Shown: positions 3,652 to 14,004, counted from the stretch's first letter. The stretch is 64,000 bases of DNA from Acidimicrobiales bacterium (GCA_038206295.1 JBBRAZ010000017.1:1122-65121); one strand, 5' to 3'. Notes: generated by a model not told the origin, from the letters alone. Program-made: numbers and translations.

Positions 3652-3716
3652 GCCAGCTCCCGCTTGGACGGGCGTCATCTCTGCACCGGCCGACGTGAGC
3701 TCGTAGCTTGCGGGCC

Positions 3717-6700
3717 GTGGACGAGCTGCCGGCGGGCCTGTACGAGGTGCTCGTCACCGAGGGGCTGAAGGCCCGCCTGGATGCACTCGCCGATGCCGTC
3801 CCGACTGAGCAGGGCGCACTCCATGCTGCGGAGGCACCCGACCGCATCGCCTGGCACCTGAGCCGCGAGATCGAGCGGGCGCTCTCCGACGTCCGTGAGC
3901 CCAACCGAGCCCGGGTCGGCATCGAGGTGGCCCGAGCACTGCTTGATCGCCTCGGCGAGCTGGTCGAGGTCGACGCGTCAATCGCCCCGGTCGACCCGGC
4001 CACGGTCCTGCACGCAATCCTCGGCCGCCGCCCCGACGGCAGCCCCGAGACCCTTGCCGAGCCGTTGATCCCCCTGCTCGACACGACCCTGCTCACGAAC
4101 GCGCCTGGCGAGCCGAACCTCTGGAACCAGCTGCGGTCCGAGATCGAATCGGCCGACCGCATCGACGTCGTCATGGCGTTCATCCGCCGCACCGGCATCG
4201 CACCGCTGCTCGACGCCCTCCGCCACCACCGCGGCAAGGACCGTCAGCTCCGAGTGCTTACGACGACCTACACCGGGTCGACGGAGAAGGCGGCGCTGGA
4301 ACAGCTCGTCGACCTCGGCGCCGACGTTCGGGTGTCCTACGACCTGAGTACGACCCGCCTGCACGCCAAAGCGTGGGTGTTCCACCGCCGCTCCGGCTTC
4401 TCCACTGCGTACGTCGGCTCGTCGAACCTGACGCATTCGGCACAGGTCACCGGCATCGAGTGGAACGTCCGAGCATCTGCCGCCCGCAACCCCGATGTGA
4501 TCGCCAAGTTCGGCGCCGTGTTCGAGAGCTACTGGTCCAGCGGCGACTACCTCCCCTATGACCCCGAGCAGTTCGAGGACGAGCAGCGCCGTGCCGGGCG
4601 AACGGACTCCGGGCCGCTGGTGATCTTGAGTCCGATCGAGCTGCGACCGCTCCCCTTCCAGGAACGACTCCTCGAGTTGGTGGCGGTAGCTCGTGAGCGC
4701 GGCCACCACCGCAACCTTCTCGTGTCCGCGACCGGCACCGGCAAGACCGTGATGGCCGCGCTCGACTACGCCGGCCTGCGCGAGCAGCTCGACCGCTCAC
4801 GGCTGCTGTTCATCGCGCACCGCGAGGAGATCCTCGATCAGAGCCTCGCCACCTTCCGCTACGCGCTGCGTGACGCGTCCATTGGCGAGAAGTGGGTCGG
4901 TGGCGCACGACCGACCCGCTTCGAGCACGTCTTCGCGTCGATCCAGAGCCTGAGCGCCTCCGGGCTCGACGCGCTGGCCGCCGATCACTTCGATGTGGTG
5001 ATCGTGGACGAGTTCCACCACGCCGCCGCCGGGTCCTACGAGAAGGTGCTCAACCACCTCGAGCCCGTCGAGCTCCTCGGCCTGACCGCAACACCCGAGC
5101 GCAGCGACGGGCTGCCGATCCTGGGGTGGTTCGACGATCGCATCGCCGCCGAGCTTCGGCTGTGGGACGCCATCGACCAGCAGCACCTGGCGCCGTTCCT
5201 CTACTTCGGCATCCACGACGGCCTCGACCTCACCGACATCCCGTGGCGGCGCGGTCGGGGCTACGAGATCGAGGCGCTCACCAACCGCTACACCAGCTCT
5301 GACGCGTGGGCCCGCCTCGTGGTGAAGCAGGTCAACGACCACGCCGACGTTGGCTCGATGCGGTGTCTCGGGTTCTGCGTGAGCGTTGAGCACGCTCAGT
5401 TCATGGCCCGGCACTTCAACCACCACGGCATCGCGTCCGTGGCGGTGTGGGGCGACAGTCCACGAGCGGACCGCGAGGCCGCCTTGCGGGACCTCGCCGC
5501 GGGCGACGTCAAGGTCGTGTTCTCCGTCGACCTGTTCAACGAGGGTGTCGACGTCCCCAACGTCGACACCGTGCTGATGCTGCGCCCGACCGAGAGTCCG
5601 GTGCTGTTCCTCCAGCAACTCGGCCGCGGGCTGCGCAAGGCAAAGGGCAAGTCGTACTGCACGGTGCTGGACTTCGTCGGCACCCACCGCAAGGAGTTCC
5701 GCTTCGACCGCCGCTACCGCGCCCTGCTCGGCGGCACCCGGCGCGACGTCGAGCGAGCCGTGCAGATGCAGTTCCCGTTCCTGCCCGCCGGCTGCAACAT
5801 GCAACTCGACGAGAAGGCCGCCGAGATCGTCCTGCGCAGCCTCCGCGAAGCCATCCCATCACAGTGGAAGGCCAAGGTCGACGAACTGCGATCGCTGCGC
5901 CGCGAGCGCCCCGGCATCGGCCTGGCTGAGTTCCTGGACGAGAGCGGGCTCGACCTCGACGACCTCTACGCCAACTCCAAGAGCTGGTCAGACCTGATCG
6001 AGGCCGCTGACGGAGCGGTTCTTCCGGCGGGCTCGGACGAGCCGGTCCTGCGGCGGGCCGTCGGTCGACTCCTGCACGTCGACGACGCGGAGCGCATCGC
6101 CACCTATCGCCAGCTCCTGGCGAGCGAACGCCCCCAGGTTCGTGACCTACCGGAGCGCACTCGGCGGCTCGTCCACATGCTCGTTGCCGCACTCGCCGAC
6201 CAGGCGCTCACGAAGGATGCCTCGCTCCAGGATGCCGTCGACCTCGTGTGGTCACATCCGCAGGTCGTCGCCGAGCTGGCCGAGCTGTTCGGTGTCCTCG
6301 ATCACCGAATCGACCACCTCCACCAGCCGCTCGCCACCCACCCGGACTCGCCACTGCAGATCCACGCCCGCTACAGCCGCATCGAGATCCTCGCCGCCAT
6401 GGGCCTCGGAGGCGACCGAGCCAAGATCGCCGCCTGGCAGAGCGGCGTGTACGAAGCCAAGCCCGCCAACGCCGAGCTGCTCGCGTTCACGCTCGACAAG
6501 AGCAGCGGCGGTTTCTCCCCCACTACCCGCTATCGCGACTACGCCGTCAGCCGCACGCTGATCCACTGGGAGAGCCAATCGGCCACGCGCGAAGACAGCC
6601 CGACTGGCCTGCGGTACCGGGACCACGAGCGAGATGGCCGCACCATCCTGCTGTTCACCCGACTCCGAGCCGACGACCGTGCGTTCTGGTTCCTCGGCCC

Positions 6701-6809
6701 TGCCACCTACCGAGGCCACGTCGGAGAGAAGCCCATGGCCATCACCTGGGAGCTCGACGTCCCACTCCCCGGCGACCTCTACGCCGCCTTCGCCGCCGCT
6801 GTCGCCTAG
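3717..6809 (+). CDS. PLD nuclease - SF2 helicase - DUF3427 protein (SauUSI-like modification-dependent restriction enzyme)
   Basis: PLD HxK motif RLHAKAWVF...GSSNL, Walker A SATGTGKT, DEFHH, LTATPER, helicase C-domain VDLFNEGVDVP/QQLGRGLR, C-terminal YRDYAVS..LIHWESQ. Start GTG 3717, 7 nt after TAGCTT. Confidence 0.88.
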   Translation: MDELPAGLYEVLVTEGLKARLDALADAVPTEQGALHAAEAPDRIAWHLSREIERALSDVREPNRARVGIEVARALLDRLGELVEVDASIAPVDPATVLHAILGRRPDGSPETLAEPLIPLLDTTLLTNAPGEPNLWNQLRSEIESADRIDVVMAFIRRTGIAPLLDALRHHRGKDRQLRVLTTTYTGSTEKAALEQLVDLGADVRVSYDLSTTRLHAKAWVFHRRSGFSTAYVGSSNLTHSAQVTGIEWNVRASAARNPDVIAKFGAVFESYWSSGDYLPYDPEQFEDEQRRAGRTDSGPLVILSPIELRPLPFQERLLELVAVARERGHHRNLLVSATGTGKTVMAALDYAGLREQLDRSRLLFIAHREEILDQSLATFRYALRDASIGEKWVGGARPTRFEHVFASIQSLSASGLDALAADHFDVVIVDEFHHAAAGSYEKVLNHLEPVELLGLTATPERSDGLPILGWFDDRIAAELRLWDAIDQQHLAPFLYFGIHDGLDLTDIPWRRGRGYEIEALTNRYTSSDAWARLVVKQVNDHADVGSMRCLGFCVSVEHAQFMARHFNHHGIASVAVWGDSPRADREAALRDLAAGDVKVVFSVDLFNEGVDVPNVDTVLMLRPTESPVLFLQQLGRGLRKAKGKSYCTVLDFVGTHRKEFRFDRRYRALLGGTRRDVERAVQMQFPFLPAGCNMQLDEKAAEIVLRSLREAIPSQWKAKVDELRSLRRERPGIGLAEFLDESGLDLDDLYANSKSWSDLIEAADGAVLPAGSDEPVLRRAVGRLLHVDDAERIATYRQLLASERPQVRDLPERTRRLVHMLVAALADQALTKDASLQDAVDLVWSHPQVVAELAELFGVLDHRIDHLHQPLATHPDSPLQIHARYSRIEILAAMGLGGDRAKIAAWQSGVYEAKPANAELLAFTLDKSSGGFSPTTRYRDYAVSRTLIHWESQSATREDSPTGLRYRDHERDGRTILLFTRLRADDRAFWFLGPATYRGHVGEKPMAITWELDVPLPGDLYAAFAAAVA

Positions 6810-7239
6810 CACATGGGGCTGCGTGTCCGAGGGCCGACGCACACGCTGGCCCCGCGACGTCTTGGGAGGGGGAGGTTCCAGACGGCATGAGCCATACGAG
6901 ACCGCCTACGGGACGCGCTCACTCGCTTCGGCGCTGTGGCCCATCTGTTACCGAATGGGCTCAGACTGATGGCACTGATCGTGACGGTCGGAGCTTGCCA
7001 CCGTTCTGGCCGATGACGACTGACGGAGACCGTGGACGACTTCGCCACCCAGTCGCCCGCCGCTCTTGGTGATGGTGCTCCTTGAAATAGCCGAGCAGGC
7101 GGCGACCGTCGCTGATTTGCGTTGGTGTCGAAGCGGGCTTCATGGTCGCCCCCCTTGTACTCGTAACCGACGCCGAGCGCCACTATGACGAGGCGCCGGG
7201 GCCTTGACTGAGGCTCGGCCACGAATCGCCAGCTGCTAC

Positions 7240-8001
7240 TCAGAGTGCGGTGAAGCGGTGACCGGACTCAAGGCCAATCTCGAGCCCAGGGAATCCGAGC
7301 ACCTTGGCCGAATAGTCGTGATACGACGCAGCCCAACGCATCTTGTCGCTCGCTCGAGGATTACTCTTGCAGGCGGCAAGCCTTGTCACGACCGCCTCCT
7401 TATGCCGCTGCAACATGAACTCCGGCGCACCGCTCTTGAGACTCCACGCAAGGTAATGAACGAAGCACTGCCCATCCTCATCCACAAGGAGGCTCCCGAA
7501 CTCAACGGCGGGATCATCGGAGGCTTCCGTTACGGCATCACCGAACGTCGCTAGCACAGCCTCCGAGATCGTTATCCTCGGCCAGTGCGCCACACTTGAT
7601 TCAGCAGCATACGCAGCATTCAGGCCGCTTCCAAAGACAAATTCTGGCCCGATCGCTAACGAGCCCTTCTCGACGCCACCTCGAAGGAACAGGGTGTCCA
7701 CAGCGAAAGCCAACTGAAATGCAGCAAGCTCGTCGACAACCCATGCCAGCGCAGGGTTCACTTCCTGATTCGACGATGCATAGGTGGGCCAACTCAACAC
7801 CGTGTTATCGGTGAAAGCGACACTCTCGAAATTGGGGGACTCACCAAGAAAGTCTCGCACTCGCTGCCGGGCAGAGATGAGCCTGCCGAGGCCTGCGTCC
7901 TCGTCCCCGTCCATCGCCCTCGTCCCTAGAACGTCAATGAATGCCACAACGCACTCCCGAAGTTCAATACCTGCTACAGATCCCATTGTGGCTTCAACCA
8001 T
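7240..8001 (-). CDS. Divergent class III nucleotide-cyclase-like (palm-fold) protein
   Basis: FIDVLG (first metal Asp), AFTDN (second Asp), FLRGGVEKG, GSGLNAAYAAESSVAHWPRI; the ATG immediately follows the TGA of the upstream gene (8002-8004). Confidence 0.7.
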   Translation of the reverse strand: MVEATMGSVAGIELRECVVAFIDVLGTRAMDGDEDAGLGRLISARQRVRDFLGESPNFESVAFTDNTVLSWPTYASSNQEVNPALAWVVDELAAFQLAFAVDTLFLRGGVEKGSLAIGPEFVFGSGLNAAYAAESSVAHWPRITISEAVLATFGDAVTEASDDPAVEFGSLLVDEDGQCFVHYLAWSLKSGAPEFMLQRHKEAVVTRLAACKSNPRASDKMRWAASYHDYSAKVLGFPGLEIGLESGHRFTAL

Positions 8002-9099
8002 TCAAGATGCTGGAAGTCCCACACCAAGCCGTTCCCGGAGTACAGAAGCACCCCGGATCAGATCGGATTGGAAGGAACTAAGACGATCGATAATGGAATC
8101 CATCACCTGAGTAGCATTCCGGGCGGATCGAGAAAAGTCTCGATTGAGTCTCTGATCACGGAGCTCCTGCAGCGTCGTTCGCATCGACCTAATTCCCGTA
8201 AGGCCGCCGTCGAGACCCTGACTCAATCCCTCGAGGTTCTCCATGAGCTTCTGGGCAGATTCCCGGTCCGAAGGATCTTCCAGCGGCGCTAGCTCGAAGA
8301 TGTCCATTAGGCTTTCGGAAATCGCCGGTGCAACTAACCCAAGAAGTTCGTCGTATGTGTCCAGCTCTTCCTTGTACCAATCGAGATCCTTTGCCGCTCG
8401 TCGAAGAACGGCAAGTGCCTTCGCCGTGTGTCCGGGAGACGCTGCAGTCTGCAGGTCCTGCACCTCAGCCGTACGAGTGACGAAGCGCTCTCCGATCTCC
8501 CGCGTTGCTGTCGATACTGCGATTGTCCCGTTCGATAGGTTTTCAAGGCGATCTTGGTTTTCAATAAGATGATCCAGAAGTCCGGCCGGCTCATCTTCCT
8601 CTATATGCACGAGAGACGAAGGCGCTCCTAGCGACTCATGAGAGTCTTTGTCGAAGAAGTCTTGGACAGGGCTCGAATACTTGATTGTACCGTCTTGGAC
8701 AGCTCGCGCAATCGATTTCAGTGAGTCGATAAGCCCGCCTATGGCTGCAAAGTGCGGGGAGTACTTGATCAATCGGTATGACCGAAGATCAAATGGAACC
8801 TGATCGATATCTTGGGTCAAGATGACTGTGGGCTTTCCGAGAGCATGGGCGATGCCAAGCTCGTACATTACGTTTGGGTTTCTCGAGGAGATTTCTGCAA
8901 CCACAAGGTCAGCTTGGCTGATCCCGTGGACAATCGCGGCAAGGATGTTCTGAAGATCGAGCTCATCGGCTCTCGCGACCACGAATCCCTCTTGCTCCAG
9001 GGTCGGTTTGATTAGCTGCGAATAGATCTCTGTGTACTCAGTGTCGATTGGGGAAAGCACAAACGCGTTCGGCTTGCGCTCCTCCACTGCGGCTGTCAT
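8002..9099 (-). CDS. Nucleoside-deoxyribosyltransferase/TIR-like N-terminal domain + long helical C-terminal region (365 aa)
   Basis: AFVLSP, RAD, ISQADLVVAEISSRNPNVMYELGIAHALGKPTVIL and PFDL motifs; ATG 9099 with a GGAGG RBS; C-terminal part amphipathic/helical. Confidence 0.8.
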   Translation of the reverse strand: MTAAVEERKPNAFVLSPIDTEYTEIYSQLIKPTLEQEGFVVARADELDLQNILAAIVHGISQADLVVAEISSRNPNVMYELGIAHALGKPTVILTQDIDQVPFDLRSYRLIKYSPHFAAIGGLIDSLKSIARAVQDGTIKYSSPVQDFFDKDSHESLGAPSSLVHIEEDEPAGLLDHLIENQDRLENLSNGTIAVSTATREIGERFVTRTAEVQDLQTAASPGHTAKALAVLRRAAKDLDWYKEELDTYDELLGLVAPAISESLMDIFELAPLEDPSDRESAQKLMENLEGLSQGLDGGLTGIRSMRTTLQELRDQRLNRDFSRSARNATQVMDSIIDRLSSFQSDLIRGASVLRERLGVGLPAS

Positions 9100-9220
9100 C
9101 AAGAACCTCCGTCGTGGGTGCGAGGCTAGTAACACAGCACCGTCAAACTGCATGGACCCTAGCTGGCAGGGCGGTTCGATCAGCGAACGGGCCCCGGACC
9201 CGCAGATCGGATCCGCCTGC

Positions 9221-9556
9221 TCATGGCACGACCCACCCTACTGACCGAAGCCAGTCGACCTCGCGGGGACTGAGCTCCCTGGTCCCGTGTTTCCATGACC
9301 CATCAATGTTGAGTGCGGATCCATCGCGAAAGTGGATCTGGGGTACCTCCGCGCCCGAGTTGTTGATGCCGTCGACGCGCTGCACCGACGACGGTCGGCC
9401 TGTGCGCCGCCGAGCCAACCCCACGGCCACCTGCCAGTGCACCTTCAGATGCTCGAAATCTGCAACGTGACGACACTCGACGACCGCGCCGTCCGGATCA
9501 GATGCGCCTATCACCGGATCACACCACTTCGCGCACGAGCAGGGCCAGCTCAATGC
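9221..9556 (-). pseudogene. 3' fragment of IS-interrupted Menshen NsnC-like effector gene
   Basis: In frame with the 5' fragment once the IS and one target-site copy are removed (...HHLGGW|AL|SWPCSCAKW...); ends RVDGINNSGAEVPQIHFRDGSALNIDGSWKHG...GWVVP*. Confidence 0.75.
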
Positions 9557-10967
9557 GGCGCTTCGCGGATGAGCGGGGTGGGGTGAGGGGCTGAGGGTCC
9601 CGGGCGCGGTACAGGGGCTCAACGAGTCTGGAGATGTCTGACGTCTCTAGATCGAGGAGCCCCTGTGTCTTCTGATGCTACGCGCATGTGCGAGCTGCTG
9701 GTCGGCCTGCCCGACGTGGACGTGCTCGACGTCGTGGAGACCGCCGACGCCCTGGTGGTCACGATCGCGACGCGTGGCGCCCGGCCGTCGTGCCCGGCGT
9801 GTGCGGGTGCGGTGGTGCTCAAGGACCGCACCGATGTCGCGCACGCGGATCTGCCGTGCTTCGGGCGTCGCACGACGCTGGTGTGGCGCAAGGCCCGCTG
9901 GGCGTGCCCCGACGCGCTGTGCGCGGTGGGGTCGTTCACCGAGCAGGCGCCCGCCATCGCAGCACCCCGGTTGGCGATCACCGATCGGGCGGGGCGGTGG
10001 GTGACGATGCAGGTCGGTCGCCACGGCCGCTCGGTGAGCGAGGTCGCTGAGGATCTGGGGTGCGGGTGGCACGCGGTGATGGACGCCGTGATCGCGTACG
10101 GCGCCGTGCTGGTCGATGACCCGGCCCGCTTCGGTGCGGTCGCCGCGATCGGCCTCGATGAGACGCTGCGCTGCCGGGTCGGACCGTGGCGTGAGCAGCA
10201 GTGGTCCACCCAGATCGTCGATGTCGGCGCCGGGCAGCTCCTCGACGTCGTTGCGGGGCGCTCCGCTGCGGGGCCGTGCAACTGGTTCGCTGCACGCAGC
10301 GACGAGTGGCTCGATGCTGTGGCGTGGGGGGCCCTGGACCTGTCGGGGCCGTACCGCAAGGTGTTCGACACGATGCTGCCCGCAGCTGTGCAGGTCGCGG
10401 ATCCGTTCCACGTGGTCAAGCTGGCGAACACGAAGCTCGACGAGTGCCGTCGCCGCGTGCAGAACGAGACCCTCGGGCACCGCGGCCACAAGCACGACCC
10501 GCTGTACCGGTGCAGGCGGCTGCTCACCCGCGCCGATGAACGCCTCGACGCGAAGGGCCGCTCGAAGCTCCTCGGTCTCCTGGAGGCCGGCGACCCGCGC
10601 GGTGAGGTCCGCACCGCGTGGCACGCGAAGGAGACGGTGCGCTCCATCTACGACCTCCTCGACGCCGACGTCGCCCTCGAGTTCGTCACCCGCCTCGGCC
10701 ACGACCTCCAAGACGAGGACTGCCCACCGGAGGTCCGCCAGCTCGGCCGCACCATCGTGCGGTGGCGTCACCAGATCGCCGCGTGGCACCAGTCGCATGT
10801 GAGCAACGGACCGACCGAAGCGGTCAACAACCTCGTCAAGCGCGTGAAGCGCGTCGCGTTCGGGATCACGAACTTCGTCAACTACCGGATCCGCGCTCTG
10901 CTCTACGCCGGCAAGCCCAACTGGGACCTACTCGCGACGGTCACACCCCGCTGAAACGCGAAGCGCC
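9557..10967 (+). mobile_element. ISL3-family insertion sequence (1411 bp)
   Basis: Left IR GGCGCTTCGCGGATGAGCGGGGTG (9557-9580) vs right IR reverse complement GGCGCTTCGCGTTTCAGCGGGGTG (10944-10967), 21/24 identical; 8-bp direct repeat CTCAATGC at 9549-9556 and 10968-10975. Confidence 0.93.
9665..10954 (+). CDS. ISL3-family transposase
   Basis: Zinc-finger CPAC...WACPDALC, DDE-type motifs GLDET, ALDLS and SNGPTEAVN, plus DPFHVV; intact 429-aa ORF. Confidence 0.93.
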   Translation: MSSDATRMCELLVGLPDVDVLDVVETADALVVTIATRGARPSCPACAGAVVLKDRTDVAHADLPCFGRRTTLVWRKARWACPDALCAVGSFTEQAPAIAAPRLAITDRAGRWVTMQVGRHGRSVSEVAEDLGCGWHAVMDAVIAYGAVLVDDPARFGAVAAIGLDETLRCRVGPWREQQWSTQIVDVGAGQLLDVVAGRSAAGPCNWFAARSDEWLDAVAWGALDLSGPYRKVFDTMLPAAVQVADPFHVVKLANTKLDECRRRVQNETLGHRGHKHDPLYRCRRLLTRADERLDAKGRSKLLGLLEAGDPRGEVRTAWHAKETVRSIYDLLDADVALEFVTRLGHDLQDEDCPPEVRQLGRTIVRWRHQIAAWHQSHVSNGPTEAVNNLVKRVKRVAFGITNFVNYRIRALLYAGKPNWDLLATVTPR

Positions 10968-11290
10968 CTCAATGCCCAGCCACCCAGATGATGGGCCGAC
11001 GAAAGTCCGCGAGCTGAAGTGCCCCTCCATCTCAGCTGACCGGCCGAGCGCGGGCCACGGGCGTTCGTGGCTCCCTCCAACAGCAGAACGACCTTGTCGC
11101 GCTTCGGGCCCTTCCGGACCTCGTCGTACTCGTCGGAGCACTTGAGGCGCTGAACCAATGGGCCGCCGTCGACTATCAGCCATCCCCGAACTTGATCGAG
11201 CAACCCGATCAAGCGACCTGCCTCAACTTGGTCGCCACAGCACGCGAGCGACAACTCGTTGAACGCAAACGCCTTATCAGGGTGGGGCAC
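10968..11290 (-). pseudogene. 5' fragment of IS-interrupted Menshen NsnC-like effector gene
   Basis: GTG 11290 with GAGGTGAGG RBS, 12 bp after the ATPase stop; 105 codons up to the target duplication (MPHPDKAFAFNELS...HHLGGW). Confidence 0.75.
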
Positions 11291-11302
11291 GACCTCACCT
11301 CA

Positions 11303-12427
11303 CTAGTTGGCGAAGTCTGCCAGCGCCGAAAGAGACTCGAGGTACTGATCGAAGAAGCCGTCTGGCCAGTGCGCGATCTGACCGGCGACGTCGATCACGA
11401 GTGGTTCAAACCGCGATTCCCCACCCTCGACCCGCGAGAAGTAGACCAGGCTCACGTCGCGCGGCTTAAGTGTCCCTTCGGCCACTCCGAGTCGAATCGC
11501 GTTGAGAACGTGATCGCTATGTGTCTCGACCACGACCTGTGCGCCTGCCCTAGCGCAAGCTACGCACAGCCTCGCAAGGTGGCCTTGGCCACGTGGGTGA
11601 AGGTGCGACTCCGGGTTCTCTACGAGAAGGAGGTCGCCGCGCCGAGCGGAGAGACAGGCAACGATGACGGGCAGCGCATAGCTGAGCCCAAACCCAACGT
11701 TGGTCGCACGATGCGGCCTTCCCGAGCTGAGTCCGGTCAGAGGACCGTCGGAGAAGCGAACGACAGCCGAACCCGTACCGGCCAGGTTGCTGGGGTAGAT
11801 CCGGGTATCGCTCGAGATCAGCTCTAACCACGCACCACACTGCTGCTCGAGGGACTTTCCCACCCCGGGCAAACGAAGCGGCGCTGCTACATCCTCGCTG
11901 CCGCGCGTAAGCAACAGGTGAACGGCATACTCGCCGCGTGGGCCAACGCTACGACTTCCCACGACGGCTGAGTGGGACTTCTGGTGAACAAGCGTCGGGC
12001 CGAGACGATCGGCGCGAACGTACTCAAGATGTTTCCACGGAATGTCAACGCGGATCGGATCGTCGCGGTCCTGGAGCGGGATGAAATCGGCATCGGACTG
12101 AGCCGAGCCGCCGAAGTGCCGCCATGGACTGCTCGTCGAGCGAATCCCAACCTCCAGCACCTGTGGTCCCTGCTCACGCGCCGGAGCAGCATCGGGCCTA
12201 TCGAACAGTACGTCCTCGTAGTCGCCCAGCTCAATCAAGTCACCGTTGAGTACGAATCCGGGCGGGTCCTGGTCACGAGATTGCTCCAAGAGGACAATGG
12301 CATGCATCACGGACGACTTTCCCGACGAGTTCGTTCCAGTGAGGACGGTGAGCTTGCCTAATCGAACGTCGAGCCGACGAAACCCCTTGAAATTCGTCAA
12401 TCGGAGATCGTGAATTCGCCCAGTCAC
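11303..12427 (-). CDS. AAA_21/ABC-type ATPase with DUF3696-like C-terminus (Menshen NsnB-like)
   Basis: LTNFKGF, Walker A GTNSSGKSS, signature VGFGLSYALP, Walker B LVENPESHLHP, ETHSDH and C-terminal HWPDGFFDQ. Confidence 0.85.
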   Translation of the reverse strand: MTGRIHDLRLTNFKGFRRLDVRLGKLTVLTGTNSSGKSSVMHAIVLLEQSRDQDPPGFVLNGDLIELGDYEDVLFDRPDAAPAREQGPQVLEVGIRSTSSPWRHFGGSAQSDADFIPLQDRDDPIRVDIPWKHLEYVRADRLGPTLVHQKSHSAVVGSRSVGPRGEYAVHLLLTRGSEDVAAPLRLPGVGKSLEQQCGAWLELISSDTRIYPSNLAGTGSAVVRFSDGPLTGLSSGRPHRATNVGFGLSYALPVIVACLSARRGDLLLVENPESHLHPRGQGHLARLCVACARAGAQVVVETHSDHVLNAIRLGVAEGTLKPRDVSLVYFSRVEGGESRFEPLVIDVAGQIAHWPDGFFDQYLESLSALADFAN

Positions 12428-13620
12428 CGCAGCGCCCTTCCAACCTTCTCGTGGCGCAGATGGACCTTCCGATAGTCACCTGTGCCTTGAGAGATCGAGG
12501 CGAGGAACTCGGGGTCCTCAAGCAGTACCTTGAATCGCTTCTGCACCGTCGCCTTCCGAGAGCCCAGCTTCTTTCGGTCAGCCACTGACTTCGCAGATAT
12601 CGCGACCATCACCGTCTCGAACAGAGCCTTGTTGATCGGCGCTCGGCGAGGATCGCCCGGAAGGCTTTTCCGGAATGCATGTTCGCCGAACAGCGCAGAG
12701 GCCACACCCAAGCTTCCCTTGAACAGCGACGAGAAGGAGCGCCTCTTCGCCGCCGTCATCGAGCTCAACGCCTTCAGGCCACCAGTAAGGAACCCGTCGA
12801 AATCGGTCGACCGAGAGTATGACTCAACGCCCTGTACGTGGAAGGCCGCGTAGCGAAGGATGATCTCTCGATCCTCCATCCTGTCGCTTCGCACGCGCCC
12901 ACCAGTCGCCTTCTTGAACTCGTCGCTTTCAGCGAGCGTCCCAAGCAGGATGCGACCTTCGCCCGGCGTCAACGCGTGGCGAAGCTCCTGACGTGTCAGA
13001 GGTGCACCACCCGTGTTGATCCGAGCAAAGATGTTGAACATCACTGGCTCGGGTGTGCCGCGCCGAATCAGGTTGAGCACAAACTCAGTCTCCTGGATCC
13101 GTGTCTGGAGACTCGGTCCAAGGTCTTCGTAGGTCAGCCCCTCATACTGAGACAGGTACTCCAGGCTCCGCAGCTGTCGGAAGGATGAGCCCGGCAGAAG
13201 GTCCGGTTCGACGAAGCTCGCGATGGTGGAGATGCGCTGGACGCCATCAACCACGATCCACTTGTCATCGCCGGTCTGCGACTCGGCCGCGTACATCGTC
13301 GGAAGTGGAATCCGTAGCAGGAGAGACTCGATCAGTCGACTCTTTCGTTGAAGGTTCCAGATTCCCGACTTCCGCTGAAAGTCAGGTTCCAGATCGAGGC
13401 GGCCGGACCGCAGGCGGGACAGAAGCAGGTTGACGTTTGGCGTTCGCTGGACGACATCAATGTCCTCGGGATCGAACGGATTGACGATCGGCTCCAGCGA
13501 TGGATCGTCGAGCTCTGGCTCGAAGTCTTCGTCCTGGCTCGTATCCTCGAGTGTGGGCATCGCGTTAGCTCGCAGCGGGTCGGAGGGTCCGAAAATCACG
13601 GAAGGTACGGCCGAAGCCAC
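12424..13620 (-). CDS. DUF262 (ParB/Srx-like, GmrS-like) protein (Menshen NsnA-like)
   Basis: PDFQR, LIESLLLRIP, VDGVQR, FARINTGG and LTRQELR motifs; 4-bp overlap (ATGA) with the ATPase gene; alternative start ATG 13560. Confidence 0.87.
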   Translation of the reverse strand: MASAVPSVIFGPSDPLRANAMPTLEDTSQDEDFEPELDDPSLEPIVNPFDPEDIDVVQRTPNVNLLLSRLRSGRLDLEPDFQRKSGIWNLQRKSRLIESLLLRIPLPTMYAAESQTGDDKWIVVDGVQRISTIASFVEPDLLPGSSFRQLRSLEYLSQYEGLTYEDLGPSLQTRIQETEFVLNLIRRGTPEPVMFNIFARINTGGAPLTRQELRHALTPGEGRILLGTLAESDEFKKATGGRVRSDRMEDREIILRYAAFHVQGVESYSRSTDFDGFLTGGLKALSSMTAAKRRSFSSLFKGSLGVASALFGEHAFRKSLPGDPRRAPINKALFETVMVAISAKSVADRKKLGSRKATVQKRFKVLLEDPEFLASISQGTGDYRKVHLRHEKVGRALR

Positions 13621-13881: not shown

Positions 13882-13916
13882 AAAAATGCGCTGACCAGGG
13901 CGATTGCCCTGGTCAG
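13882..13916 (-). terminator. Hairpin terminator after tRNA-Leu(GAG)
   Basis: Perfect 11-bp stem CTGACCAGGGC/GCCCTGGTCAG (13891-13916), 4-nt loop, followed 4 nt later by TTTTT on the minus strand. Confidence 0.65.
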
Positions 13917-13917
13917 G

Positions 13918-14004
13918 TGGTGTCGGAGGGGGGACTTGAACCCCCACGTCCTTGCGGACACTAGCCCCTCAAGCTAGCGCGTCTACCTATTCCGCCACTC
14001 CGAC
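13918..14004 (-). tRNA. tRNA-Leu(GAG)
   Basis: Acceptor stem GTCGGAG/CTCCGAC + A-CCA, anticodon arm CTAGC-TTGAGGG-GCTAG, long variable arm, GTTCAA T-loop. Confidence 0.96.

Follow-up and report, generated by a model that had tools for sequence, protein, structure and literature searches.

A Type I Menshen operon of an Acidimicrobiia genome, its effector gene probably interrupted recently by an active ISL3-family insertion sequence

How did a three-gene Menshen anti-phage operon, encoded on the minus strand of an Acidimicrobiia genome (Acidimicrobiales bacterium; a draft of 92 contigs), come to carry an insertion sequence (IS) within its third gene, and is this insertion an accident of transposition, a selected loss or a switch? 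The operon was analysed in a window of 64,000 nucleotides, which is the whole stretch of DNA under study, and the GC profile of this window falls to 52–64% over about 7000–13500, as against about 68–71% on both flanks. No near-identical or closely related locus was found in any collection searched, the best NsnB reaching 61% identity. Our preferred reading, which we hold to be probable, is that of a Type I Menshen operon on a low-GC defence island beside a tRNA-Leu gene, the nsnC of which recently received an active ISL3-family element by simple insertion; the event would be one hit of a transposition burst and not a programmed switch. The genes of the operon and the border of the island are as follows.

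12424–13620, minus strand: nsnA, 398 aa, intact; ParB-like DUF262 (GmrSD_N)
11303–12427, minus strand: nsnB, 374 aa, intact; ABC-type ATPase with C-terminal DUF3696, overlapping nsnA by 4 bp
10976–11290, minus strand: 5' fragment of nsnC, codons 1–105; alpha/beta N-terminal domain at the inPIN position (ORF list, join and alignment)
9221–9556, minus strand: 3' fragment of nsnC, codons 106–216 and stop; Cys cluster (SWPCxC...CRH) and a C-terminal domain of ~70 aa of polymorphic-toxin type
13918–14004, minus strand: tRNA-Leu(GAG), located by ARAGORN; marks the edge of the low-GC defence island in which the operon lies
13891–13916: terminator-like hairpin beside the tRNA-Leu gene (terminator scan)

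An earlier note on this DNA had described a DUF262 gene, followed with a 4-bp overlap by a DUF3696-type ATPase gene and then by a third gene starting at GTG 11290, and had taken the three for a Menshen triplet. All of these coordinates were reproduced, and the NsnA and NsnB profiles, on which the assignment had been made to depend, do match, with the third gene in the canonical position. NsnA is recognised by the PADLOC NsnA model (E=1e-120; residues 29–395, model positions 20–377 of 385) and by Pfam GmrSD_N (E=9.5e-20), shares 63–64% identity with the NsnA proteins of the homologous operons L001 and L003, and retains the DGxQR motif as well as the other invariant columns. The matches agree with the expected make-up of an NsnA, in which a ParB-like DUF262 domain is joined by a C-terminal DNA-binding region. 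Since it carries no extra N-terminal sensor domain, the system is placed in Type I. NsnB is recognised by the PADLOC NsnB model (E=7.4e-93; model positions 2–343 of 345), in addition to Pfam AAA_15, AAA_21 and DUF3696 (DUF3696 at E=3.1e-12), and its Walker A (GTNSSGKSS) and ENPExHLHP motifs are invariant in comparison with three homologues. The third ORF begins 12 nt past the nsnB stop, and is interrupted by an element with the following features.

9557–10967, plus strand: ISL3-family insertion sequence, 1411 bp, in the orientation opposite to the operon
9557–9580 and 10944–10967: terminal inverted repeats at the ends of the element
9665–10954, plus strand: transposase, 429 aa, apparently intact; Zn-ribbon, HTH and DDE_Tnp_ISL3
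9549–9556, unstranded: left copy of the target-site duplication, CTCAATGC; its minus strand encodes A106-L107-(S108)
10968–10975, unstranded: right copy of the target-site duplication, CTCAATGC (exact-match search)

Only two exact copies of the 8-bp sequence are present in the window, at 9549 and 10968, and they bracket the element. The inverted repeats (GGCGCTTCGCG) are perfect over 11 of 11 positions and agree at 21 of the first 24, by hand count of the 40-nt ends. The transposase matches Pfam DDE_Tnp_ISL3 (PF01610) at E=4.5e-47, and its HTH_Tnp_ISL3 (25.3 bits, cutoff 27.4) and Zn_ribbon_ISL3 (23.7 bits, cutoff 25.5) matches lie below threshold. The proposal of an effector gene split by an ISL3-family element with an intact transposase and an intact target duplication was thus borne out. 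Of 41 genomes from the same order, 15 contain relatives of the transposase, with identities of up to 62%, and, judged from these sequences, the element is new when set against the genomes of its order.

The excision of 9557–10967 together with one duplicate had been said to restore a stop-free ORF of 216 aa, and it does: joining 9221–9556 to 10976–11290 gives 651 nt, i.e., 216 codons (105 + 111) and a stop, a length typical of the family. The present-day ORF (11290..10928) encodes 120 aa, made up of the 5' part of nsnC followed by the duplicate and 13 IS-encoded codons up to a stop. The insertion point lies between codons 105 and 106, at the end of the N-terminal alpha/beta domain and just ahead of the conserved Cys cluster; in an AF2 model of one homologue (P0002), the last strand of the N-domain stops at this very point. 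The junction of the joined gene reads ...HHLGGW-AL-SWPCSC..., inside a conserved GG(F/W)ALSWPCxC motif in which S108, P110, C111, C113 and W116 are near-invariant. The repaired protein shares 44–53% identity, over 100% of its length, with ten full-length homologues; in alignment with these, the 3' fragment retains every invariant family residue, and apart from the split nsnC shows no other decay. The end-to-end alignment with ten independent full-length homologues, which runs across the junction, shows that the joined 216-aa frame represents a genuine gene rather than a fortuitous open frame.

Full-length homologues of the 216-aa protein downstream of DUF262/DUF3696 pairs, on which the Menshen reading had also been staked, do occur: all six gene contexts checked run from GmrSD_N through an AAA_15/21/DUF3696 ATPase to the homologue as the directly following third gene. 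The family is rare: 5.8 billion proteins yielded about 10 full-length relatives, and 1.8 billion representatives yielded 9 at E<1e-30. Most of its members stem from metagenome contigs of Acidimicrobiia type. It had been suggested that Menshen HMMs be run on the repaired protein, and here the result was negative, no PADLOC model, and hence no NsnC model, matching at E<=10. Such a miss is to be expected, since 35 families of NsnC N-domains and 15 of C-domains have been reported (Li, Tan, Basu, Corbett and Zhang, NAR 2025, PMC12065111). The DSSP string of the N-domain in the P0002 model alternates between beta and alpha elements, which fits a PIN-like domain; Foldseek gave no match for it.

The C-terminal domain of ~70 aa is also found at the tips of RHS, PT-HINT and Fil_haemagg_2 (haemagglutinin-repeat, CdiA-type) proteins. 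A search of 50%-identity representatives gives about 360 matches to it at E<=0.001; almost all of these lie at the extreme C-terminus of larger proteins, and in polymorphic toxins the domain is followed by a conserved immunity-like ORF of ~165 aa. This position at polymorphic-toxin tips, with the immunity-like ORF behind, supports an effector of toxin or nuclease type. An AF2 model of the domain from this locus (pLDDT 93.8) consists of H2–15, four strands and H62–70; a Lys-His pair and a second His are conserved, the His in strand 2 and the KH at strand 4. Searches of Pfam, NCBIfam, PADLOC and the PDB returned no match for the domain, and Foldseek against the PDB returned no structural neighbour, its best hits having E=0.7 for the full-length model and E=1.5 for the C-terminal domain alone. 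Likewise, six of the downstream ~165-aa ORFs gave no real Pfam match at E<=0.1 (a chance DUF2120 hit only, 13 bits, E=0.084), and two of the six gave no real NCBIfam match (a chance hit of 16 bits only, against a cutoff of 700).

According to the NsnB4-NsnC2 model of Li et al. (2025), the DUF3696 tails of an NsnB tetramer would, in an intact system, be the docking site for the N-domain of NsnC. NsnA would sense phage DNA, upon which the ATPase activity of NsnB would license or release the C-terminal toxin domain, and the released domain, most likely a nuclease, would shut down the cell or the phage. At the present locus, the toxin domain would be uncoupled from the docking domain as well as from its translation signals, and for this reason the system would be off. 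The inference in the earlier note that it is currently off is therefore sound: the toxin domain is cut from the predicted NsnB-docking domain and possesses no start signals of its own.

At least five copies of the element are present in the genome, with ends that are 100% identical; all copies other than the one in nsnC break contigs, leaving about 139–140 bp of IS at the contig ends. Two pairs of contigs matched by their target duplications (C45|C17 and C54|C58) show that the element also interrupts other ORFs, namely an AbiEi_4/DUF559 gene and a 453-aa ORF without a Pfam match. The duplications at these two copies are likewise 8 bp long (CGCAAACC and GACTTGGG), and since each copy has its own duplication the copies are simple insertions. 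Two of the three resolved targets (n=3) are accessory or defence-like genes, a sample in which a bias or selection toward such genes is conceivable. Because the other copies lie in unrelated genes, the insertion in nsnC is most simply explained as a recent, opportunistic hop. Such an insertion would be tolerated and possibly mildly favoured, since the shedding of a costly toxin-based defence is cheap.

A stronger role for selection is conceivable but rather unlikely, in which the insertion was positively selected because NsnC was toxic or autoimmune, or because it barred the uptake of a useful mobile element. The effector does carry a polymorphic-toxin domain, in a genome that contains no homologue of the immunity family associated with this domain, and one of the other IS copies interrupts a nuclease-type gene (AbiEi_4/DUF559). 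Li et al. (2025, PMC12065111) also mention that phage tolerance may be reached through pseudogenisation of Menshen parts, and IS insertions in cas genes are reported to be enriched under nuclease toxicity (PMC10359306). However, the 453-aa ORF hit by another copy has no visible link to defence, three resolved sites permit no claim of enrichment, and nsnA and nsnB are untouched; besides, an island that is not essential would tolerate any insertion. The number of copies, the identity of their ends and the unrelated genes that they interrupt fit a general transposition burst, which is the preferred reading, and selection for relief from toxicity, as proposed in the earlier note, gained no support here.

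The earlier note had also raised the possibility of a reversible switch, in which precise excision of the element restores nsnC at a useful frequency and the population phase-varies between on and off. Reversible insertion and excision of IS elements governs some surface-polysaccharide loci in other bacteria. On paper, the event in nsnC is exactly reversible, with an intact duplication and a family-typical restored frame, and the transposase is intact in an element that is evidently active. Exact repairability carries no information, however, because any newly inserted IS that has generated a target duplication can be repaired in this way. No empty site was found: the metagenome contigs lack the 25-mer that spans the repaired junction, which is uninformative since they lack a flanking 25-mer as well. 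The site shows no feature of a dedicated switch, and the identical-ended copies in unrelated genes again fit a burst; we regard a switch as unsupported and very improbable. Least probable of all is that the assembler placed the element inside an intact chromosomal nsnC, since, odd as it is that this copy alone was assembled through while all others break contigs, both of its junctions share an 8-bp duplicate which is single-copy in the homologous gene, which a mis-join would not create and which is therefore a signature of real transposition, and the other copies show the same 8-bp pattern.

The insertion, on the retained reading recent and opportunistic, offers a clear-cut natural case in which a mobile element would have turned off a defence based on a toxin. 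IS-mediated loss of a defence system is an ordinary route in bacteria, and the event itself raises no new question; the rare toxin domain of the effector is only a mildly new point. With this locus, the Menshen catalogue gains a rare NsnC family of actinobacterial (Acidimicrobiia) origin. The C-terminal domain and its candidate immunity partner are the more useful by-product and, if not among the families named in 2025–2026, offer a cheap target for toxin-immunity and structural work. Tentatively, and with some doubt, the C-terminal ~70 residues might represent an undescribed toxin fold (conserved Arg, Asp, His, Asp and Lys-His) which forms with the ~165-aa ORFs an uncurated toxin-immunity pair widespread at RHS/CdiA-type tips. 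Menshen might then have borrowed the toxin without the immunity gene, leaving sequestration by NsnB as the sole safety catch, so that the IS knock-out would mark its carrying cost and the domain would add a 16th effector class to the 15 described by Li et al. (2025).

Several known systems can be set beside this locus. Compared with Type I Menshen as described (PMC12065111), it has the same order of three genes, overlapping or abutting, in a defence island, with a ParB-DUF262 NsnA free of any extra sensor domain, an NsnB composed of an ABC ATPase and DUF3696, and a third protein of about 220 aa with an alpha/beta N-domain and a small toxin-type C-terminal domain; it differs in an NsnC without a PADLOC match, which belongs to a rare family, has a conserved Cys cluster between its domains and is encoded by an IS-split gene. 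PB-UF1 ("Unknown Fold 1", PMC12065111) is a Menshen effector domain without a confident structural homologue that also occurs at the C-termini of polymorphic toxins. The domain studied here similarly lacks a Foldseek match and sits at RHS, PT-HINT and haemagglutinin-repeat tips; by comparison of descriptions only, the two differ in that Imm15 lies downstream of PB-UF1 in polymorphic-toxin loci, whereas the ORFs found here match no Pfam family. BECR-Tox2 (bioRxiv 10.64898/2026.08.28.747851) serves as a C-terminal module of Menshen NsnC and also occurs in polymorphic-toxin loci, where a small immunity gene is dedicated to it; it has a KH motif in an N-terminal extension and a second His near beta-4, and most of its members are in Menshen. 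The present domain resembles it in its dual use, in the predicted order of a helix and then four strands, which is that of the BECR core, and in its conserved Lys-His and second His, whereas the order of His and KH is reversed and most members of its family are in polymorphic toxins; no BECR structure was among its Foldseek matches, and no sequence-profile match was found in the PDB.

The element itself resembles the ISL3 family in its single DDE_Tnp_ISL3 transposase with Zn-ribbon and HTH, its length of about 1.4 kb, its terminal inverted repeats starting GGC.CTTCG and its 8-bp duplication, in keeping with the norms of the family, and differs in that its best transposase match among 40 genomes of the order reaches only 62% identity. 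Finally, the inactivation of prokaryotic immunity genes by IS elements is documented, for example in CRISPR-Cas systems (Nat Commun 2023, PMC10359306). The present case differs in its defence system (Menshen and not CRISPR-Cas), IS family and host phylum; in both, a natural IS insertion in a nuclease or effector gene disables, or here would disable, the defence and leaves the remainder of the locus untouched.

Three minus-strand genes of the window constitute a Menshen operon, of Type I as classified by Li et al. (2025; PMC12065111), an assignment made because NsnA is without an extra N-terminal domain. The first two genes, as they appear in the ORF list, and the insertion sequence (IS) that splits the third, the effector gene nsnC, are as follows.

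13620 to 12424, minus strand: nsnA, ORF of 398 aa
12427 to 11303, minus strand: nsnB, ORF of 374 aa
9557 to 10967: ISL3-family IS of 1411 bp, with inverted-repeat ends and flanking duplicates
9665 to 10954, plus strand: transposase of 429 aa, the only protein of the IS

The nsnA and nsnB frames overlap by 4 bp, and nsnC starts at GTG 11290, 12 nt past the nsnB stop; these values, the other coordinates and counts of the earlier note and its 216-aa join were each reproduced. Its reading of the locus as Menshen, against which a lack of NsnA and NsnB profile matches was to count, was borne out by both PADLOC models, that of NsnA matching the first protein over nearly its full length (E=1e-120) and that of NsnB matching the second (E=7.4e-93). 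Identity to the proteins of homologous operons is 63–64% for NsnA and 49–54% for NsnB, and in the alignment with them all invariant columns are retained in both, including the Walker A and ENPExHLHP motifs. The IS is the sole lesion of the operon.

The effector gene had been described as exactly restorable, and on paper it is. When 9221–9556 is joined in silico with 10976–11290, so that the IS and one octamer drop out, the resulting 651 nt comprise 216 codons plus a stop, with a junction that reads ...HHLGGW-AL-SWPCSC.... Among 5.8 billion proteins searched, ten are full-length homologues, with 219–233 aa (44–53% identity, 100% query coverage, E from 1e-48 to 3e-65). In the family alignment the junction falls inside GG(F/W)ALSWPCxC, the best-conserved N-proximal motif, and the restored protein retains each invariant column. 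For the homologues P0001, P0002, P0005, P0006 and P0008 the DNA context was checked, at six distinct loci, and at each of them the homologue lies directly 3' of a GmrSD_N (DUF262) gene and an AAA_15/AAA_21/DUF3696 gene, where the earlier note had taken a lack of such neighbours as grounds for abandoning its reading. The restored frame is thus, judged by its conservation and neighbours, a gene. The proposed search of the restored ORF with Menshen profiles gave nothing, since the 216-aa protein has no real Pfam or PADLOC match at E≤10, and NCBIfam (E≤0.1) gave for P0002 a chance 14-bit match alone, against a cutoff of 293 bits. This is unsurprising, because for NsnC Li et al. (2025; PMC12065111) count 35 families of N-domain and 15 of C-domain. 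A single near-full-length NsnC relative occurs in 185,579 species-representative genomes, at L005:1099-1770, a locus of the Acidimicrobiia MAG SAW267, where the NsnC frame is open, has no start codon before its codon 69 and is entered over 150 bp by the nsnB frame, an anomaly that is probably a frameshift or assembly error in this MAG.

The operon forms the tRNA-proximal end of a low-GC (52–64%) island, adjoined by tRNA-Leu(GAG), and its neighbours within the island include the following.

661 to 2337 and 3708 to 6809: an AbiEi_4-like gene with an AbiEii nucleotidyltransferase toxin gene, and a PLD nuclease-ResIII/helicase-DUF3427 protein of 1033 aa
7240 to 9153, minus strand: translationally coupled NDT/TIR-like pair, 67 bp downstream of the nsnC stop

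In the 383-aa product of the coupled pair's first gene, the N-terminal domain is nucleoside-deoxyribosyltransferase/TIR-like (Pfam E=2.2e-8; PADLOC TIR effector E=1.2e-8), and the product of the second, of 253 aa, has no Pfam, PADLOC or NCBIfam match; the IS may exert a polar effect on these two genes, provided that they share a transcript with the Menshen operon. At four loci elsewhere (L003, L035, L036 and L037) the Menshen triplet directly follows a tyrosine integrase, and HTH_17, HTH_3 and TrwC relaxase genes are close by; the triplet in these relatives is therefore cargo of integrative mobilisable elements. No integrase remains in the window, where the tRNA-Leu and a terminator hairpin stand at that place.

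The knock-out of the effector gene by an ISL3 element, as claimed earlier, is upheld by the transposase (Pfam DDE_Tnp_ISL3, E=4.5e-47, with the ISL3 HTH and Zn-ribbon matched more weakly, below threshold), by the inverted repeats and by the 8-bp duplicates. Of the octamer CTCAATGC the 64-kb window holds exactly two copies, at 9549 and 10968, which bracket the IS. The ends of the IS are inverted repeats GGCGCTTCGCG, perfect at 11/11 positions, and a manual count found matches at 21 of their first 24 positions. The 3.78-Mb, 92-contig genome holds at least five copies of the IS, with visible ends 100% identical, and two further insertions were reconstructed by means of matching 8-bp duplications at contig ends. 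One, between C54 and C58 (duplication GACTTGGG), splits an AbiEi_4/DUF559-type gene, and the other, between C45 and C17 (duplication CGCAAACC), splits a 453-aa ORF without assigned function. The latter copy (C17:1-65, 1.1 kb left of window position 1) lies about 10.6 kb left of the nsnC copy and in the same orientation. A composite transposon made of these two copies was rejected, since each has its own matching duplication, and they are for that reason independent simple insertions. Between these direct copies lie the AbiE genes, the PLD-helicase gene, the NDT/TIR-like pair and the 3' portion of nsnC, and a single recombination event between the copies would remove most of the defence island. 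ISL3 transposases occur in 15 of 41 genomes of the order, at up to 62% identity. The identical copies, the intact transposase, the intact duplication and the otherwise undecayed nsnC point to a recent event within an ongoing burst. On C7 (left end) and C60 (right end), the 8 bases flanking the IS are mutual reverse complements, GGGTATCG and CGATACCC, with no direct duplication; either the IS seems to sit at the centre of the palindrome GGGTAT[CG]ATACCC, or two oppositely oriented copies seem to have hit the same repeat. On C53, a fifth right end is without a partner.

The earlier suggestions that the insertion was selected to relieve toxicity, or that precise excision serves as a reversible switch, both found no support. 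Exact repairability comes with every new insertion that duplicates its target. NsnB is absent from 40 genomes of the same order, its closest relative elsewhere is 61% identical and the exact protein was found nowhere outside the window's genome. The 25-mer of the empty site had zero matches in metagenome contigs, a search that is uninformative because a flanking control 25-mer also gave zero. Inactivation of immunity genes by IS elements is a known phenomenon (PMC10359306), and pseudogenised Menshen parts have already been mentioned by Li et al. (PMC12065111). The event is a commonplace inactivation by an IS, and the known system that it struck carries a rare NsnC variant.

The anatomy of the effector was derived from an AlphaFold2 model of the homologue P0002 (11-sequence alignment, pLDDT 86, pTM 0.84), which comprises an N-domain of alternating strands and helices (residues about 8–108), a Cys/His-rich hairpin region (SWPCxC...CRH...H..HW) and a C-terminal unit in which four strands are flanked by a helix on either side. 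On this model, the IS sits at the exact end of the last N-domain strand (W105-A106-L107), so that the 120-aa product still encoded behind nsnB contains essentially the entire N-domain, the part of NsnC predicted to dock between two DUF3696 tails of the NsnB tetramer (PMC12065111). The Cys cluster and the toxin unit now lie beyond the IS, without a start context of their own. The window's last 76 residues were also modelled alone (40-sequence alignment, pLDDT 93.8). With Foldseek, neither the full-length model against PDB and BFVD nor the domain-only model against PDB gave anything below E=0.3, the returns being low-TM-score junk only.

A phmmer search of 1.8 billion representatives gave 359 matches, nine of them at E<1e-30, namely seven full-length and two truncated NsnC relatives. 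Among the matches listed, nearly all span residues about 148–219 only and place the domain at the extreme C-terminus of proteins of up to 2237 aa; sampled carriers bear RHS repeats, a PT-HINT pretoxin domain, DUF6443, haemagglutinin repeats or an RHS-associated core. By this distribution, NsnC's C-terminal domain is a polymorphic-toxin module. In 13 of 16 genome loci, the start of an ORF of about 160–175 aa lies at the toxin stop or no more than about 30 bp from it. Six such ORFs were compared, each showing homology to two or more of the rest, which makes them a candidate immunity family. In nine loci from many phyla (L007, L009, L013, L015, L017, L019, L024, L030 and L032) the conserved ORF overlaps the toxin-tip stop, at about 6200–6720 in most of these loci, with the shared motifs PPS(L/I)Y, EEYR and WEF.R.IY. 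These downstream ORFs have no Pfam or NCBIfam model. The window's genome holds one copy of the toxin domain, and a homologue of the candidate immunity family was not found there.

The nearly invariant residues R25, D27, H40, D50, K54 and H55 (domain numbering) would suit a metal-independent nuclease. A profile of the domain against PDB sequences gave a chance 13-bit match to RNase H alone, and a per-member Pfam scan gave no match. A His-Me/HNH reading of H..N..H was rejected on three grounds: a non-conserved Asn, a spacing that is too short, and a third strand between hairpin and helix. The predicted order of helix and four strands is that of the BECR core, a resemblance with no demonstrated relationship, and BECR-Tox2 (bioRxiv 10.64898/2026.08.28.747851) offers an analogous dual use, with a motif order that differs from that of the window's domain. 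Imm15, the partner of PB-UF1 reported by Li et al., was not found beside this domain. The best fit, likened by description, is PB-UF1 itself, "Unknown Fold 1" of the Menshen study, an effector domain of unknown fold that is also found at polymorphic-toxin tips (PMC12065111).
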